Assembly: GCA_964452125.1 (NCBI GenBank)
Contig: CAYVLO010000003.1
Coordinates: 1 to 32,692, forward strand
DNA length: 32,692 nt
Origin: an uncultured Anaerolineaceae bacterium
GTDB lineage: Bacteria; Chloroflexota; Anaerolineae; JAAYZQ01
Reading direction: 5' to 3'
Part shown: positions 23,188-29,204 of the stretch, in pieces
Layout: the number at the start of each line of letters is the position of its first letter
How positions within the stretch are numbered: the stretch's first letter is position 1
The notes under the pieces: generated by a model
Database searches by the model: none
What the model was told of the DNA's origin: nothing
The model's input: only the letters and a program-made list of their open reading frames with translations
Position numbers and translations under genes: made by a program

Positions 23188-24276
23188 TCAGTCCCCAAAA
23201 GCGGAAACAACCCGATAGGGATCGGTGGCAATGATGCTTTGGGCAAAAATCTCCATCGACCCCACATCGGACGTGGTGCCCTGCAGATTTCCTCTGTCAA
23301 CAATTCGAAAAAGGAAGGGAAAACCCTCCCAATCCTCATCGACCGGAACCAGCGGCGGCTGATAAAGCCCGAGGTTAAAGCTCTGCACGCCCAACCGATC
23401 GACAAAGCACCGGAGCACCCGATACAGCGCCGACGTCAGATCGGAATCCAACCGAGGACCCAGGATAAGGGTTTCCTTTTCCTTGAAAGGTGTCAAAGAA
23501 GGCAAGATCCAAGCCGCGCCATGGGGCTCGGCCAAACCCAGCGACCGGTGCACAGCAACCAGATCATCGAAATAGCTCACGCCGTGGGAAGCGCGGTAGG
23601 CAAGGGCAGATCGTCGCCAGGCCTCCACCTTGGCATAGTGCATGCCCCGCGTCAAGGTCATCTGAGCATGTCCGTGCAGGATCGATGCACCGCTGCGCCA
23701 CAAGCAGTTCCACAGGAAAAACGGATAGCAAGCCTCGGGGTCGAGGCGCTGAGCCGTGCGAGCCCAGACCTGGGCCGTTTCCACATAGTCGGCCACCTGG
23801 TCCTGGGAAAACCGCAGAGGGTGATGCTCGTCAAAGACGATGACCGAATGCCAGCCATCGTACTTGGCGACGTTGGAAGCCGTGCGGCAGAACGTGCCCC
23901 GCACGCGCCCAAAAAGGTCGGAGGGGGTGCCTTCCTCAGCGCGGCAAAAGGGACCGCCCGTGCTGGCGGCGATGATCGCCTCCGGATCCTTGCCGTCCGT
24001 GGGCATCTCAATGGGCCGCCTGGCCCGCAGCTCGTTGAACAGAGATCCTTCAAAAGTGACCCGGTTGGTGACCTTGACGATGCGCTGCTCCTCCACCGCC
24101 TCCAGGGAGCCAAACCGCTCGGTGATCCAACCCCGCATAGGCTTGGGCGGCACGACCACCCCCGCGCTCACACTCACGTGGAAAATCCGCTCAAAGCGCT
24201 GTCGCTCTTCCAAGGGAAGGGCCGCTATCCGCCGGTCGAGGCAGGTGATCGTTTGCTCGCTGGACAAAGGGGTCAC
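23188..24276 (-). CDS. GalT-like (HIT superfamily) nucleotidyltransferase
   Basis: RARRP, PFC and GASILHGHAQ (HxHxQ). Start GTG 24276 overlaps the glgA stop (GTGA). Confidence 0.72.
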   Translation of the reverse strand: MTPLSSEQTITCLDRRIAALPLEERQRFERIFHVSVSAGVVVPPKPMRGWITERFGSLEAVEEQRIVKVTNRVTFEGSLFNELRARRPIEMPTDGKDPEAIIAASTGGPFCRAEEGTPSDLFGRVRGTFCRTASNVAKYDGWHSVIVFDEHHPLRFSQDQVADYVETAQVWARTAQRLDPEACYPFFLWNCLWRSGASILHGHAQMTLTRGMHYAKVEAWRRSALAYRASHGVSYFDDLVAVHRSLGLAEPHGAAWILPSLTPFKEKETLILGPRLDSDLTSALYRVLRCFVDRLGVQSFNLGLYQPPLVPVDEDWEGFPFLFRIVDRGNLQGTTSDVGSMEIFAQSIIATDPYRVVSAFGD

Positions 24277-25775
24277 GGCGTCTTCCAGTGATAGGCACTG
24301 AATTCCGTCCGAGGAAGGCGGCTCGCGCGAGCCCGATGGTACAACTCGATATAGCTGCGCGCCGACCGATCCCAAGAAAAGTCGGCCTTCATTCCCCGCA
24401 GTTGAAGCTGGCGCCAGGCGTCCTGGTGTCGATAGGTTTCGACAGCGCGAACCACGGCAGCAAATAGCGCCCAGCGATCGTACACCTCGAACACGAACCC
24501 TGTGCCCAGTCCAGTCCGTGGGTCATAATCTTGCACCGTATCCGCCAACCCGCCGACCGCACGCACAATCGGCACGGAACCATAGTGCATGGCGATCATC
24601 TGCCCCGTGCCACAGGGTTCCGTGCGGCTCGGCATCAGGAACATGTCGCTTCCTGCATAGATGCGCTGTGCCAGTGGAGCATTAAAGGTGAAAAAGACCG
24701 CCATCTGCCCAGGATACTGCCCCACCATGCGGCTCAAAAGCTCATGGTAGTGCTGCTCGCCGGTACCCATCACCACCAACTGAATTCCCAGGTCGAGGAG
24801 ATGGTCCACAACGTCGGTCAGGATGTCCAGTCCCTTCAAGTCGGTCAGCCTGGAGATAATACCGATGAGGGGCGTCTCCACCGCCTCGACCAGCTTGGCC
24901 TCGCGTTGCAGCGCCGCCTTGTTTTCCACCCGCCGATCCAGCGAAGACATGTCGAACCTCGTGGCGATGTGGGGATCGGTGGCGGGATTCGCCGTCTCAT
25001 AGTCTACGCCGTTCAAGACGCCAAACAGGCGATCCCGCCGGTCTCGAAGCATCGGATCCAGCCGTTCGCCAAATTCAGGGCGCAGGATCTCGCGGGCATA
25101 ACTTTCGCTCACGGTGTTCAGTAGATCCGCCGAATAGATGCCGCGGGCCATCAGGTCGACCACCTCGTTCAAGTCGGCCATCTCTGGGTGATAGATGAAA
25201 CCCCACTGATCGAGCCCGGCGACTTCGAGCACTCGATAGCCAAAGATGCCCTGATAGGCCAGATTGTGAATCGTATACACAGTAGCCACTTGGGCGAAAA
25301 AGGGATCGTCCCTGTAGATCGTGTTTAGCCAGTTGGGCACAATGGCCGTGTGCCAATCGTGGCAGTGGATCACATCAGGCACCCACTCCAAGAGCTTGAT
25401 CCCTTCCAGGATCGCGCGACAGAAGAAAATGAATCGGTCGGCATCGTCCGGGTACATGTAGATGCCCTGGCGATCAAAATAGCGCTCATTGTCCACCATA
25501 TAGACCGGCACATCGGAGCCGATAGTGGCCTGCAGCAGCCGGGCTTTTTCAACAGTGCGGTGCACCGGCACGTCAAAAGGGGCCAATGCTTCCTTCAGTT
25601 GAAATTGCTGGGGATCAATGCGCCCGTAGCGGGGCATAGCCACCCGTATATCGTGGCCCAGGGCGCGGATGGCTTTGGGCAACTCGCCGACCACATCGGC
25701 GAGTCCTCCCGTCTTGGCAAAAGGCGTCGCCTCAGCGGCGAGCATCAGGATCTTGAGCGATCCGTTTTCGGTCAA
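24273..25775 (-). CDS. glgA: Glycogen synthase (GT5)
   Basis: KTGGLADV, HCHDWHT, TIHNLAYQG, MPSRTEPCG and VGGLADTV; TTG start with GGAGGA RBS. Confidence 0.95.
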   Translation of the reverse strand: MTENGSLKILMLAAEATPFAKTGGLADVVGELPKAIRALGHDIRVAMPRYGRIDPQQFQLKEALAPFDVPVHRTVEKARLLQATIGSDVPVYMVDNERYFDRQGIYMYPDDADRFIFFCRAILEGIKLLEWVPDVIHCHDWHTAIVPNWLNTIYRDDPFFAQVATVYTIHNLAYQGIFGYRVLEVAGLDQWGFIYHPEMADLNEVVDLMARGIYSADLLNTVSESYAREILRPEFGERLDPMLRDRRDRLFGVLNGVDYETANPATDPHIATRFDMSSLDRRVENKAALQREAKLVEAVETPLIGIISRLTDLKGLDILTDVVDHLLDLGIQLVVMGTGEQHYHELLSRMVGQYPGQMAVFFTFNAPLAQRIYAGSDMFLMPSRTEPCGTGQMIAMHYGSVPIVRAVGGLADTVQDYDPRTGLGTGFVFEVYDRWALFAAVVRAVETYRHQDAWRQLQLRGMKADFSWDRSARSYIELYHRARASRLPRTEFSAYHWKTP

Positions 25776-26047: not shown

Positions 26048-27025
26048 CTAGTCGCCCCGGGGCGCCTGCATGTCCAACTCGGTTCGCACTGTACGATACA
26101 GCTCGGATGCCCGCAGATCGGCCAGGCAGTAGCAAGGTCCTCCCAGGGCATTGGCCAACTTTTGGGCCAGACCCCGGTCATAGGCTTGATGCTCCACGTT
26201 CACCACCACCGAGTGGACTCCCGCCCTTTGGATCAGATCGGCGATCCGAGCAGCCTCTTCCTGGGGAGGCGCATCGGTCAGCGAAACGTTGCCCGCGCCG
26301 TCGGTCAGGAGGATCATCAGGGGCATCGCCTGAGGATGAAGCCGTAGCTCGCGGCAAATGACACGATAGGCCAACATCAACCCCGCTGACAGGGGGGTCT
26401 TGCCTCCCACGGGCAGGTGCCGCAGGGCCGATTCAGCCAGGTCTACACTGGAGGTAAAGGGCAACGCCAGCCTGGCCTCCTCTTTTTGAAATACGATGAG
26501 GCCCACCTGGTCCCTCTTTTGATACGCATCGACCAACAACGACATGATGGCGCCTTTGGTGGCCTCCATGCGCTGGGTGCCCGCCATACTCCAACTGGCG
26601 TCCACCACAAACAGGACCAGGTTCGAGGCGCGCCGGACGCGGATCTTTTTCTGGACATCCTCCGGCAAGATGCTCAAACGGCCCAACTCGGTCTGTCGCT
26701 TGGTCTGCTGCAACGCCGCCTGGCGGATGGTCGCATCCAGGGCAATGTCACTCAGATCGCCGCAAGCTGGTTGAGATTGGATGTACCGCCCTCGCTTGCG
26801 GCTGGTTCGCGTCGTCGAACGCTTGCCCGCCGTGCGGCGCGTAATCCGGTCCATGGGGGATTCGAGCCGACGAGATCGGAACAAATCCCCCACGTCATGG
26901 ATTACGAGCGCTTCTTCGGCGTCCCCGATTCCCAGGGGTTCTGCGACATGACCTTGAAGGGTTGCCCCAGCACTTCCCGCGCCTGCGTCAATGGGACGAG
27001 GTGCTCGATTGCTTTCGAGGTCTTT
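26048..27025 (-). CDS. C-terminal (-1 frame) part of a chelatase subunit D: linker + VWA domain
   Basis: [33 protein letters not shown] and LTDG.GNV. The frame stays open upstream of the called GTG 26893 as far as TAA at 27098-27100, and there is no SD before 26893. Confidence 0.8.
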
Positions 27026-28146
27026 TTTTTTTCGTCCGTCGGTTCCGTCATCGACGAATCGGACTTGTCTTCCGGTTTCTTGGATTCCTCGTTCTTTTTA
27101 CGGGCCTCTTCCAATTTCTTGGACAGGTCTGCCATCCGATCTTCCGTATCCTGGAACGGCTGACGCTTGAGCCTGTGGGGCAGGGCCAGCTCGGCTGCCG
27201 CCAGAATATCCAACTGGGAAAGGGCCGGCTCTTTCCCCCCCCCGCCGTTGCGGGCAAACCGGTACGCGGCATGGGCCAGGGCCGCCTTGAGGATTACAAT
27301 GTCCGCCCGGTGTCCATCCACCTCAAAGCTGGTGGTCAATTGAGCGATGGAGTACAGATCGGCGGGTTGGTAGCTCACAGAGGGCAGGATCTGGCGAGCC
27401 CGGGCGATTTCGTGGGACAGCTGGATCTCGTAGGGCTCCCATTCGGCCCGAAAGCCCTCTGGATCGCTCTCAAACTGCACAGTCCGCTCAAGAATGTCCA
27501 CGCGCGCCTCGTGCGAGGCAATGCTCCGGATCTCCACACAGAGGGCAAAACGATCCAACAACTGAGGACGTAGCTCACCCTCTTCGGGGTTCATGGTACC
27601 CACCAAGATGAAGCGGGCCGGATGACTGAAGGAAATGCCCTCTCGCTCCACGACGTTGCGGCCCATGGCTGCCGAGTCGAGGAGAAGATCGACGACGTGG
27701 TCGTCGAGCAGATTCACCTCATCGACATAGAGCAATCCGCGGTTGGCCGCTGCCAGTACACCTGGTTCGAACTTTTTCTTGCCGGTTTTGAGCGCCAATT
27801 CGATATCGAGGGTGCCCACCACCCGATCCTCGGTCGCGCTGACCGGGAGATCCACAAAGCGAGTTCGGTGAGTGGCCACCGGCAAGACCTCGCCATTGCT
27901 CACTCGCTCCTGGCAGAGATCGCACAGGTGATCGGGGCGGTGTGGATCGCACTGAAACGGGCAATCGGCCACCACTTTGATCTCGGGCAGCAACGCTGCC
28001 AAAGCCCGAGCCGCGGTCGATTTGGCCGTGCCGCGCTCTCCCCGGATCAGCACACCGCCGATCCTGGGGCTAATGGCGTTGAGGACCAACGCCGTTTTCA
28101 TCGACTCTTGTCCAACGATAGCTGTGAAGGGAAAAATTACCTGCAT
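26902..28146 (-). CDS. Mg/Co chelatase subunit I-like AAA+ ATPase (N-terminal frame of a frameshifted chlD-type gene)
   Basis: [61 protein letters not shown] and LPHRL. Confidence 0.93.
27022..27032 (-). other. Putative programmed -1 frameshift / slippage site (A10G, containing A_AAA_AAG)
   Basis: The minus strand reads GAC GAA AAA AAA AAG ACC in the ChlI frame; the -1 frame continues into the VWA domain. Confidence 0.75.
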
Positions 28147-28227: not shown

Positions 28228-28731
28228 CTAAAAGACCTTGAAATTTTCCTTTTTCACCTTGCACACGGGGCAGTGATCGGGTGGCTCGCCAATGTGCGTA
28301 AATCCGCATGTCGGGCAGATATAGACCTCGGCGATCTCGATGTCCTGGCCTTTTTCGGCAGTCTTACGAGCATCGCCATACATCTCCGCGTGGATCTTTT
28401 CCGCCTCGATGGCATAGCCCATACTGCGCTTGGCGCCCTTTTCCCCTTGAAGCTCGGCGACAGCAAGGTACGCTGCGTACATCTCGTCAACCTCAAAATT
28501 CTCACCCGCAATGGCCGTTCCAAGGTTAGCGACGACGTCGCCAACACCGCCCAACTCGCGCAGATGGTTGGTGGCATGGACCCGTTCCGCATAGGCAATC
28601 GCCTCAAATAGGCGGGCAATATTGGATTTGCCCTCCTTGGCCGCCTGGTCGGCAAAAGCCAAGTACTTGACACAAGCCTGGCTTTCGCCGGCAAATGCCG
28701 CCTTTAGATTTTCCTTTGTCATGTCTTTCAT
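28228..28731 (-). CDS. rbr: Rubrerythrin
   Basis: AFAGESQA, ERVH, GENFE and EKIH diiron ligands, plus C-terminal CPTC...CPVC; AAGGAG RBS. Confidence 0.93.
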   Translation of the reverse strand: MKDMTKENLKAAFAGESQACVKYLAFADQAAKEGKSNIARLFEAIAYAERVHATNHLRELGGVGDVVANLGTAIAGENFEVDEMYAAYLAVAELQGEKGAKRSMGYAIEAEKIHAEMYGDARKTAEKGQDIEIAEVYICPTCGFTHIGEPPDHCPVCKVKKENFKVF

Positions 28732-28805: not shown

Positions 28806-29204
28806 TCACGACGCACCCCCCGGGAGGGAACCGCCTGTCTCCGCTTGGGACAACGCCCTTTGTATATGCTGCAAAAGCACGGGAACAGAGAAAGGCTTTT
28901 GCACATAGCCAAAAGGAAAACGATGCCCACTGTGGGTGCGGCTGGGTGGTTCGGCCGATAGAAACACGATAGGAACCCTTGCTCCTGTCCACGAGTCCAG
29001 CATCTCCAAAGAAGCCAACCCCTCTCCATCTGGAAGATCCAGATCAAGGACAACGAGATCAACCTGGGCTTGGCCCAAAAGGGTCAACCCATGCTCTACA
29101 CTCACCGCCTCGCGAACAACCATGCCCAAGGATTCCAGGTTGACCCGGACCAGCTTGCGCATCCTCCAATCGTGCTCAACCACCAACACAGTACACGAGA
29201 TCAT
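28806..29204 (-). CDS. Single-domain response regulator (receiver)
   Basis: VLVVEHD, DLVVLDLDLPD (phospho-Asp), IVFLSA and QKPF. Confidence 0.82.
   Translation of the reverse strand: MISCTVLVVEHDWRMRKLVRVNLESLGMVVREAVSVEHGLTLLGQAQVDLVVLDLDLPDGEGLASLEMLDSWTGARVPIVFLSAEPPSRTHSGHRFPFGYVQKPFSVPVLLQHIQRALSQAETGGSLPGGAS

Follow-up and report, generated by a model that had tools for sequence, protein, structure and literature searches.

How many genes, and how many proteins, are encoded between positions 28146 and 26048 on the minus strand of the window, by which we mean the whole stretch of 32,692 bases analyzed here? Read conventionally, this region holds a ChlI-like ATPase of 414 amino acids and, in another frame, a VWA ORF of 281 amino acids called from a GTG codon. 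The original prediction was that the two ORFs are a single recoded gene, in which a one-base slip on a run of ten adenines (A10) joins the ATPase to the VWA domain. We found that this programmed recoding is real and conserved, and that it belongs to the class of frameshifted chlD genes (fs-chlD) published since 2013. It is highly probable that the locus is one transcription unit for two proteins that share a ChlI-type AAA+ module.

The 0-frame ORF extends on the minus strand from the ATG at 28146, with the sequence GGAG 5 nt upstream of it, to the stop codon TAA at 26904-26902. Its 414-amino acid translation, the short product (28146-26902), is composed of the ChlI-type AAA+ module, a charged linker and a tail of 39 amino acids. 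Codons 371-375, in phase with the ATG, read GAC GAA AAA AAA AAG (27036-27022) and contain the A10 run (27032-27023, minus strand), which together with the next G forms the heptamer A_AAA_AAG in the 0-frame (27028-27022). No other run of eight or more A or T is present in the window, which has a GC content of 60%. The -1 frame (27097-26048, minus strand) is bounded at its 5' side by the TAA at 27100-27098 and has 349 open codons before the closing stop at 26050-26048; from 27022 on, it encodes a ChlD-type linker and a VWA/MIDAS domain. The overlap between the two frames spans positions 27097 to 26902. A -1 shift at AAA AAG would join 375 residues of the first frame to 324 of the second, which gives a computed product of 699 amino acids. 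Re-reading the sequence confirmed the coordinates, the 414-amino acid ORF, the A10 run, the extent of the -1 frame and the fusion of about 699 amino acids from which the prediction had started.

We characterized the proteins encoded in the two frames by comparison with domain models and known structures. The 0-frame product matches the Pfam families PF01078, PF07728 and PF17863 (Mg_chelatase, AAA_5 and AAA_lid_2), with GERGTAKS as Walker A and LLYVDEVN as Walker B. Its N module aligns with Mg-chelatase ChlI over residues 2-335 (E 5e-100), and the matches to the ChlI/BchI structures 8osf, 6l8d and 1g8p have E values from 5e-100 to 1e-90. Two differences from the Mg-chelatase subunit are the Walker A motif, which reads GDRGTGKS in 8osf, and the score against the BchI-ChlI model TIGR02030 (E 2.1e-123, 411.8 bits), which lies below the curated cut-off of 466.95. 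The -1 frame matches Pfam VWA_2 and VWA, carries the MIDAS motif DASWS...T...D and aligns with the integrin-I domain of Mg-chelatase BchD (2x31_A, E 3.3e-17). Both frames match the same model, TIGR02442 ('putative cobaltochelatase'): the 0-frame product covers model positions 1-360 (E 1.5e-148, 496.1 bits) and the -1 frame positions 380-640 (E 6.1e-79, 266.1 bits), where the two halves were scored separately and the curated cut-off of 779.45 bits refers to the whole protein. Since these matches fall on consecutive parts of one model of 641 positions, the two frames are halves of a single family model. The locus therefore shows the layout of an fs-chlD gene, with an N-terminal AAA+ module of the ChlI type that ends in a charged linker, and a start-less VWA/MIDAS half in the -1 frame that overlaps the end of the first ORF.

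To place the locus in an evolutionary context, we searched for the gene in 61 genomes of the same class (Anaerolineae) and found a match in 52 of them. We analyzed 49 orthologous loci, one per genome (30 from the search and 19 fetched), plus one paralog, by locating the N and C parts with tblastn and then keeping account of the reading frames. The tree and all tallies exclude the paralog (L051), and a stand-alone chlI paralog (L002) entered none of the frame analyses. A run of seven to ten adenines (A7-A10) is present at the homologous linker position in 47 of the 49 orthologous loci, and it is A9 or longer in 42. The gene is split by a -1 frame break in 34 loci (A9 in 29, A10 in 3, A8 in 1 and A7 in 1), the three with A10 being the window, its congener and one further locus (L030). 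Another 13 loci are in-frame fused genes of approximately 680-740 amino acids (A9 in 8, A10 in 1, A7 in 3 and no run in 1), so that the run is kept in 12 of 13 of them, with L037 as the exception. The two remaining loci are odd: L050 has no run, is 56% identical and sits on a long branch, and L018 has A9 with an inconsistent ('+1') frame. The latter was not counted because the neighbouring rubrerythrin gene is also broken, which makes its assembly unreliable. Conservation of the A run and of the frame break in homologous loci was one of the points on which the original prediction depended, and it is borne out by the 34 loci split at A7-A10.

Without exception, the 34 split loci have the run within the stretch where the two frames overlap, a stretch that is just 19 nt long in three of them; these loci thus carry the conserved A-rich slippery site within the overlap (A7-A10 in 34/34) that is characteristic of fs-chlD genes. 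In the split loci the 0-frame stops at a median of 4 nt after the run, typically in the sequence GGA AAA AAA AAG ANN TGA. In the in-frame genes, the -1 frame meets a stop 0-34 nt past the run and the +1 frame 2-145 nt past it. Outside the slip site, the 183,454 bases examined in 50 related loci hold only two other A or T runs of at least eight bases. The A10 run of the window is far from what chance would produce. We also collected a second set of 80 further loci, some of whose records are genomes of the first set, and 53 of these loci have both halves. A -1 split occurs in 24 of the 53, all with A7-A10 (24/24). The 29 in-frame loci of this set comprise 17 without the run and 12 with A6-A10: judging by record titles, those without the run are mostly from archaea and Deltaproteobacteria/Thermodesulfobacteriota, with two from Chloroflexota, and those with A6-A10 include Chloroflexus and Chloroflexaceae records.

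The same loci allowed us to ask whether the region could instead host two genes, namely one for the ChlI-like ATPase and one for a VWA protein with its own start at GTG 26893, translated perhaps through coupling to the stop at 26902. In favour of this reading, 9 nt separate the GTG from the 0-frame stop codon, and two genes would be returned by an ORF caller. In each of the 34 split loci, however, the -1 frame can be followed upstream as far as the run without a stop, and the protein is conserved upstream of the GTG, where it matches the in-frame fused relatives: a ..G-A-P-L/I-K/Q-G-H-V-A-D/E-P-L-G.. stretch precedes the GTG in the same frame in both split and in-frame genes. The alignment of the VWA half with TIGR02442 begins 8 residues upstream of the GTG. 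The codon itself falls on the I/V position of the conserved motif P-I/V-G-x-x-F-R-x-R-R, again in split and in-frame relatives alike, and we saw no SD in the sequence upstream of it, as had been noted originally. Moreover, in most relatives around 100 nt lie between the end of the 0-frame and the equivalent codon, and coupling at this place would therefore not be general. Two independently initiated genes are thus very improbable. GTG 26893 (26893-26891, minus strand), the called start of the 281-amino acid ORF, encodes a Val within the long product and is not a start. The -1 split in 34 of 49 loci, the match of the two halves to one model and the coding conservation upstream of the GTG all agree with the proposed single recoded gene.

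An apparent frame break at a homopolymer could also result from an assembly error, in which case the true run would be A11 (or A8) and the gene a plain in-frame chlD. The source of the window is a fragmented metagenome-assembled genome of 691 contigs and in-frame relatives do exist (13 of 49), both of which speak for such an error. Against it, the A10 run is bridged without indels by Logan contigs, which are assembled contigs, from three DNA runs of three studies (X1, 26423-27234; X2, 26946-28146; X3, 26720-27247; no gaps); the source sample may be among these runs. The identical split is present in the congener and in all 18 clean loci of the window's family, which indicates that the state is inherited and not assembly noise. 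In addition, the 0-frame of split genes stops directly after the run, and in-frame and split genes mostly share A9, so the frame is not decided by run length. The error is extremely improbable in the light of these data, and we conclude that A10, confirmed here at the level of assembled contigs, is not an assembly artifact. One metatranscriptomic RNA run also gave contigs at the locus, at positions 26645-26978 only. Since they end 45 nt short of the A run, they carry no information on slippage.

Within its family, the window stands out at the slip site. It has reached A10 through a G-to-A change, reading GAA AAA AAA AAG where the family reads GGA AAA AAA AAG. Its 0-frame stops 118 nt after the run versus the median of 4 nt, the longest such distance among the 34 split loci and one that is otherwise seen only in its congener. 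The loss of the usual stop after the run leaves the short product with a tail of 39 amino acids that is read out of frame from the linker. Over the 118-nt overlap, the window and its congener show just two differences, one synonymous in each frame.

These observations fit a simple scheme for the expression of the locus. Standard decoding of A10 would produce the 414-amino acid ATPase, an I-type product, and a one-base slip on the run would produce the D-type product of 699 amino acids, with its AAA+ module, linker and VWA/MIDAS domain. The slip could consist of one extra A inserted by RNA polymerase or of a ribosomal -1 slip of tRNA-Lys on A_AAA_AAG, and it may set the ratio of the two products, as proposed originally. 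In the in-frame genes, slippage at the run would yield a short product instead. A slip at the run would thus replace the default product, be it short or long, by the other one, following the logic of dnaX. By homology, the two products would assemble into a two-ring AAA+ motor similar to ChlI/ChlD.

We then weighed the two possible origins of the slip. The original prediction allowed for either and named the hairpins at 27019-27004 and 27004-26979 as candidate 3' stimulators. One explanation is a dnaX-type -1 shift of the ribosome on A_AAA_AAG, stimulated by these hairpins; in its strict form, it does without any contribution of RNA polymerase. The window has the heptamer in the right phase (27028-27022), the same A_AAA_AAG in that phase is found in 25 of the 34 split loci (phase 2, then G), and a review calls A_AAA_AAR the conserved shift site of chelatase genes in its available text (PMC5009743). 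In the remaining 9 split loci, the run is in another phase or is followed by a C, and of the accessory signals that accompany the heptamer in dnaX-type -1 PRF, neither a conserved 3' stem-loop nor an SD-like stimulator was found. The CTCGA-N6-TCGAG sequence is indeed present at 27019-27004 (minus strand), where RNAfold returns a small hairpin with a stem of 4 bp, and the sequence of the relatives at this place is unrelated. When we compared the 50 nt after the run with stretches of the same gene in 48 loci, the median percentile of the MFE was 0.49, with 5 of 48 loci below 0.1. The corresponding 50 nt of the window (-13.9 kcal/mol) are at the 48th percentile. Downstream structure is therefore not enriched, and the two proposed stimulators, although present, are unremarkable and not conserved. 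This part of the original prediction was not supported.

Signals upstream of the run gave a similar picture. Structure in general was rejected as a candidate (median percentile 0.38, 9 of 48 loci below 0.1), and hairpins ending 0-3 nt 5' of the run had a median percentile of 0.44, with 5 of 48 loci below 0.1 and the window at 0.24. An SD-like element 6-17 nt upstream of the heptamer occurs in 9 of 47 loci versus 12% of control positions, which is no enrichment overall, and none is present in the window. The run is hence the only conserved signal that we detected, and this pattern, drawn from sequence comparison, favours slippage on the run itself, by RNA polymerase and/or by the ribosome in the -1 direction.

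The features of the run add to this conclusion. Its length is held at 9 +/- 1, where 6-7 adenines would be enough for the heptamer, and loci differ in the codon phase of the run and in the base that comes next (G or C). AAA accounts for just 36.5% (396 out of 1,086) of the Lys codons elsewhere in these genes. A run of about nine or more A or T is what programmed transcriptional slippage of the Thermus dnaX and IS-element type calls for, and the window has A10. Chelatase poly-A cassettes in an E. coli reporter showed shifting that climbs with run length, from 10% with A7 to 40% with A9 and 63% with A11, according to the portions of the report available to us (Antonov et al. 2013 NAR, PMC3711429). 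The missing accessory signals, the run kept at 9-10 and not at 6-7, the variation in phase and next base, the low use of AAA and the reporter data together favour RNA-polymerase slippage, and we lean slightly towards it as the main contributor, with ribosomal -1 slippage accounting for the rest. The same evidence makes an exclusively ribosomal shift unlikely. Every phase of an A9 run, however, holds an A_AAA_AAA/G heptamer, so the comparative data are also compatible with purely ribosomal slippage; both processes may act, and our data cannot separate them.

The coexistence of split and in-frame genes raises the question of how often the frame has changed between lineages. On a maximum-likelihood tree of the N modules the two states are scattered, and 12 changes are needed to explain them, which is no fewer than with shuffled labels (mean 11.5 changes). 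Strongly supported branches force at least two frame flips, as estimated by a quick method on a tree with a weak backbone. These data suggest repeated frame flips with retention of the run, on a tree that is too weak to count them. They also invite a broader reading, which we put forward tentatively and as somewhat less than an even proposition. The run may be a frame-agnostic slippage site of RNA polymerase, held at 9 +/- 1 adenines, across which Anaerolineae lineages flip repeatedly between split and in-frame states. The default product would then differ between lineages, slippage would buffer one-base indels in a loose linker, and the I/D motor would serve a client other than CobN/ChlH. The reason for this last element is that no large subunit was found in these genomes, nor a corrin pathway in the present one.

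To gain insight into the client of the putative motor, we looked for partner genes. CobN/ChlH (PF02514), CbiD and CbiC were not found in this genome (91.8% complete, 6.3% contamination). The large subunit expected of a Class I chelatase (ChlIDH / CobNST) was thus not found in it, which is a further difference from Mg-chelatase. Throughout the class, CobN/ChlH is above cut-off in 1 of 61 genomes, where it sits in a separate chlI-chlD-cobN cluster. A stand-alone ChlI-like paralog, 42% identical, is present on a short contig of this genome, and the stand-alone chlI paralog of five relatives is an ORF of 386-514 amino acids with no run and no VWA match downstream. The search suggested at the outset, for cobN/bchH and a separate chlI, thus returned only the latter. 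The genomic neighbourhood did not point to a client either: neighbours such as rubrerythrin, a receiver-domain gene and glgA are shared only within the window's family, and clustering of 1,198 flanking ORFs gave no cluster spanning several families. The client in this lineage would not be the classical CobN/ChlH large subunit, and 'chelatase' is consequently a family name here and not a demonstrated function.

The absence of the large subunit and of the corrin pathway from our search results for this genome could also be expected if the locus were a decaying pseudogene, that is, a chlD that lost its frame and fell out of use. Both halves are nevertheless intact, with catalytic and MIDAS motifs and no further stops, they are 70-99% identical across the family, and the split is conserved across many families. 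Decay is scarcely credible against this background. By homology with the known subunits, the two products should form a ChlI/ChlD-type AAA+/VWA motor.

The locus can be compared with several systems described previously. In the sections of PMC3711429 that we consulted, Antonov et al. 2013 listed 23 -1 frameshifted 'magnesium chelatase' genes with poly-A sites, one Chloroflexi genus among them, and experimental tests of both products were published for only three cassettes, all taken from other organisms. In their review, Atkins et al. 2016 (PMC5009743) describe A_AAA_AAR in chelatase genes as being under purifying selection. Kuznetsov, Milenkin and Antonov 2022 (PMC9227772) named fs-chlD carriers in the Anaerolineaceae group of Chloroflexi (Anaerolinea, Ornatilinea, Longilinea, Levilinea and Brevefilum) that have no large subunit and neither the B12 nor the chlorophyll pathway, some of them with an extra chlI, and stated that the function of the I and D pair alone is unknown. 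The three sources, as far as their accessible parts go, support the initial claim that frameshifted chlD genes giving I and D subunits had been reported in other prokaryotes. Our locus shares with these genes the ChlI-type AAA+ ORF, the poly-A site (A_AAA_AAR, 7-11 adenines) and the -1 frame leading into the VWA half, and the genotype of the carriers, without large subunit and with extra chlI, matches this genome. It differs in the A10 of the window versus the A9 of its family and in a 0-frame that continues past the run, and this genome does not appear among the carriers named in the accessible part of PMC9227772. In the portions of the fs-chlD literature available to us we found no statement on in-frame orthologs that keep the run, which Antonov 2020 or the supplements may cover, and we found no literature on transcriptional slippage in chlD-type genes beyond Antonov 2013, Atkins 2016 and Kuznetsov 2022.

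The closest parallel outside the family is dnaX, where a long and a short AAA+ subunit of the clamp-loader type are made from one gene through a slip on an A run. According to the consulted part of PMC3711429, the gamma and tau products derive from a ribosomal -1 shift on A_AAA_AAG in E. coli and from transcriptional slippage on A9 in Thermus thermophilus. The in-frame relatives of our locus have the same polarity as dnaX, with the long product by default and the short one by a slip into a nearby stop. In the window, in contrast, the polarity is reversed, with the short product as the default, no SD-like or hairpin stimulator was found and the protein family is another one.

For the annotation of these genomes, our results mean that the two ORFs are one recoded gene, as in the relatives, and that ORF calling has created an artifact in the 'VWA domain protein' with its start at GTG 26893. 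On the basis of its sequence and of its relatives, it is very probable that two proteins are made from this gene, a short ATPase and a long one composed of the ATPase plus the VWA domain. Nothing in this is new in principle. What the analysis adds is a dense comparative picture for Anaerolineae, in which the poly-A run is the only conserved signal and in-frame genes retain it as well. The gene also persists in genomes in which the large chelatase subunit is not found (above cut-off in 1 of the 61 genomes, with corrin genes sought in this genome only). The picture sharpens two questions already posed in the literature: whether the slip is transcriptional or ribosomal, and which role a ChlI/ChlD pair may have without the large subunit.

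An A7-A10 run occupies the same linker position in 12 of 13 chlD-like genes in which the AAA+ and VWA modules are fused in frame (loci L021-L024, L027-L029, L031, L032, L035, L036 and L041). Both alternative frames of these in-frame genes soon close beyond the run: the -1 frame has stops at 0-34 nt, the +1 frame at 2-145 nt. A slip at the run would release the short ATPase, with a polarity opposite to that predicted for the window gene. Besides its own ortholog of the window gene, one relative (G010) carries a divergent paralog (L051, G010:C4:298200-301700; 58% identity in the N part and 32% in the C part) that is likewise split by -1 and has a run of A9.

The genome of the window hosts a second, stand-alone ChlI-like gene (L002, G000:C448 1-852, minus strand), whose top match is TIGR02442 (E-value 4.6e-76) and which shares 42% identity with the window ChlI-like gene. 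The contig end truncates this gene, and a gene for a large membrane protein adjoins it. The counterparts of this paralog in five relatives are ORFs of 386-514 aa, and a search of these five loci for a poly-A run and a downstream VWA match found neither. A CobN/ChlH large subunit scored above the cut-off in only 1 of the 61 genomes, G025, where it lies in a chlI-chlD-cobN cluster (G025:C16:7864-14507). This cluster is separate from that genome's ortholog of the window gene (L042), which has an A7 run and a -1 split.

In the window, the genes named from sequence reading as a putative rubrerythrin (28228-28731), receiver-domain protein (28806-29204) and glycogen synthase (24273-25775), all on the minus strand, flank the chlD-like gene in an order common only to loci within the window's family. 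Rubrerythrin adjoins the chlD-like gene in 17 of the 19 loci of this family and in none of the 30 loci of other families. At locus L018 (G019:C44) both genes have frame breaks, the rubrerythrin appearing as two tblastn pieces in different frames; this assembly is probably error-laden.

In the AAA+ module of the window gene, the Walker A motif (28041-28018, minus strand) is GERGTAKS, with Ala before Lys, whereas the solved ChlI (8osf) has GDRGTGKS. Motif comparison recovered GERGTAKS in 48 of the 49 orthologous loci (L003-L050 and the window), and the stand-alone ChlI-like paralog on C448 reads GPRGTGKT. This GERGTAKS form of Walker A may be characteristic of the lineage of D-type or fs-chlD genes.
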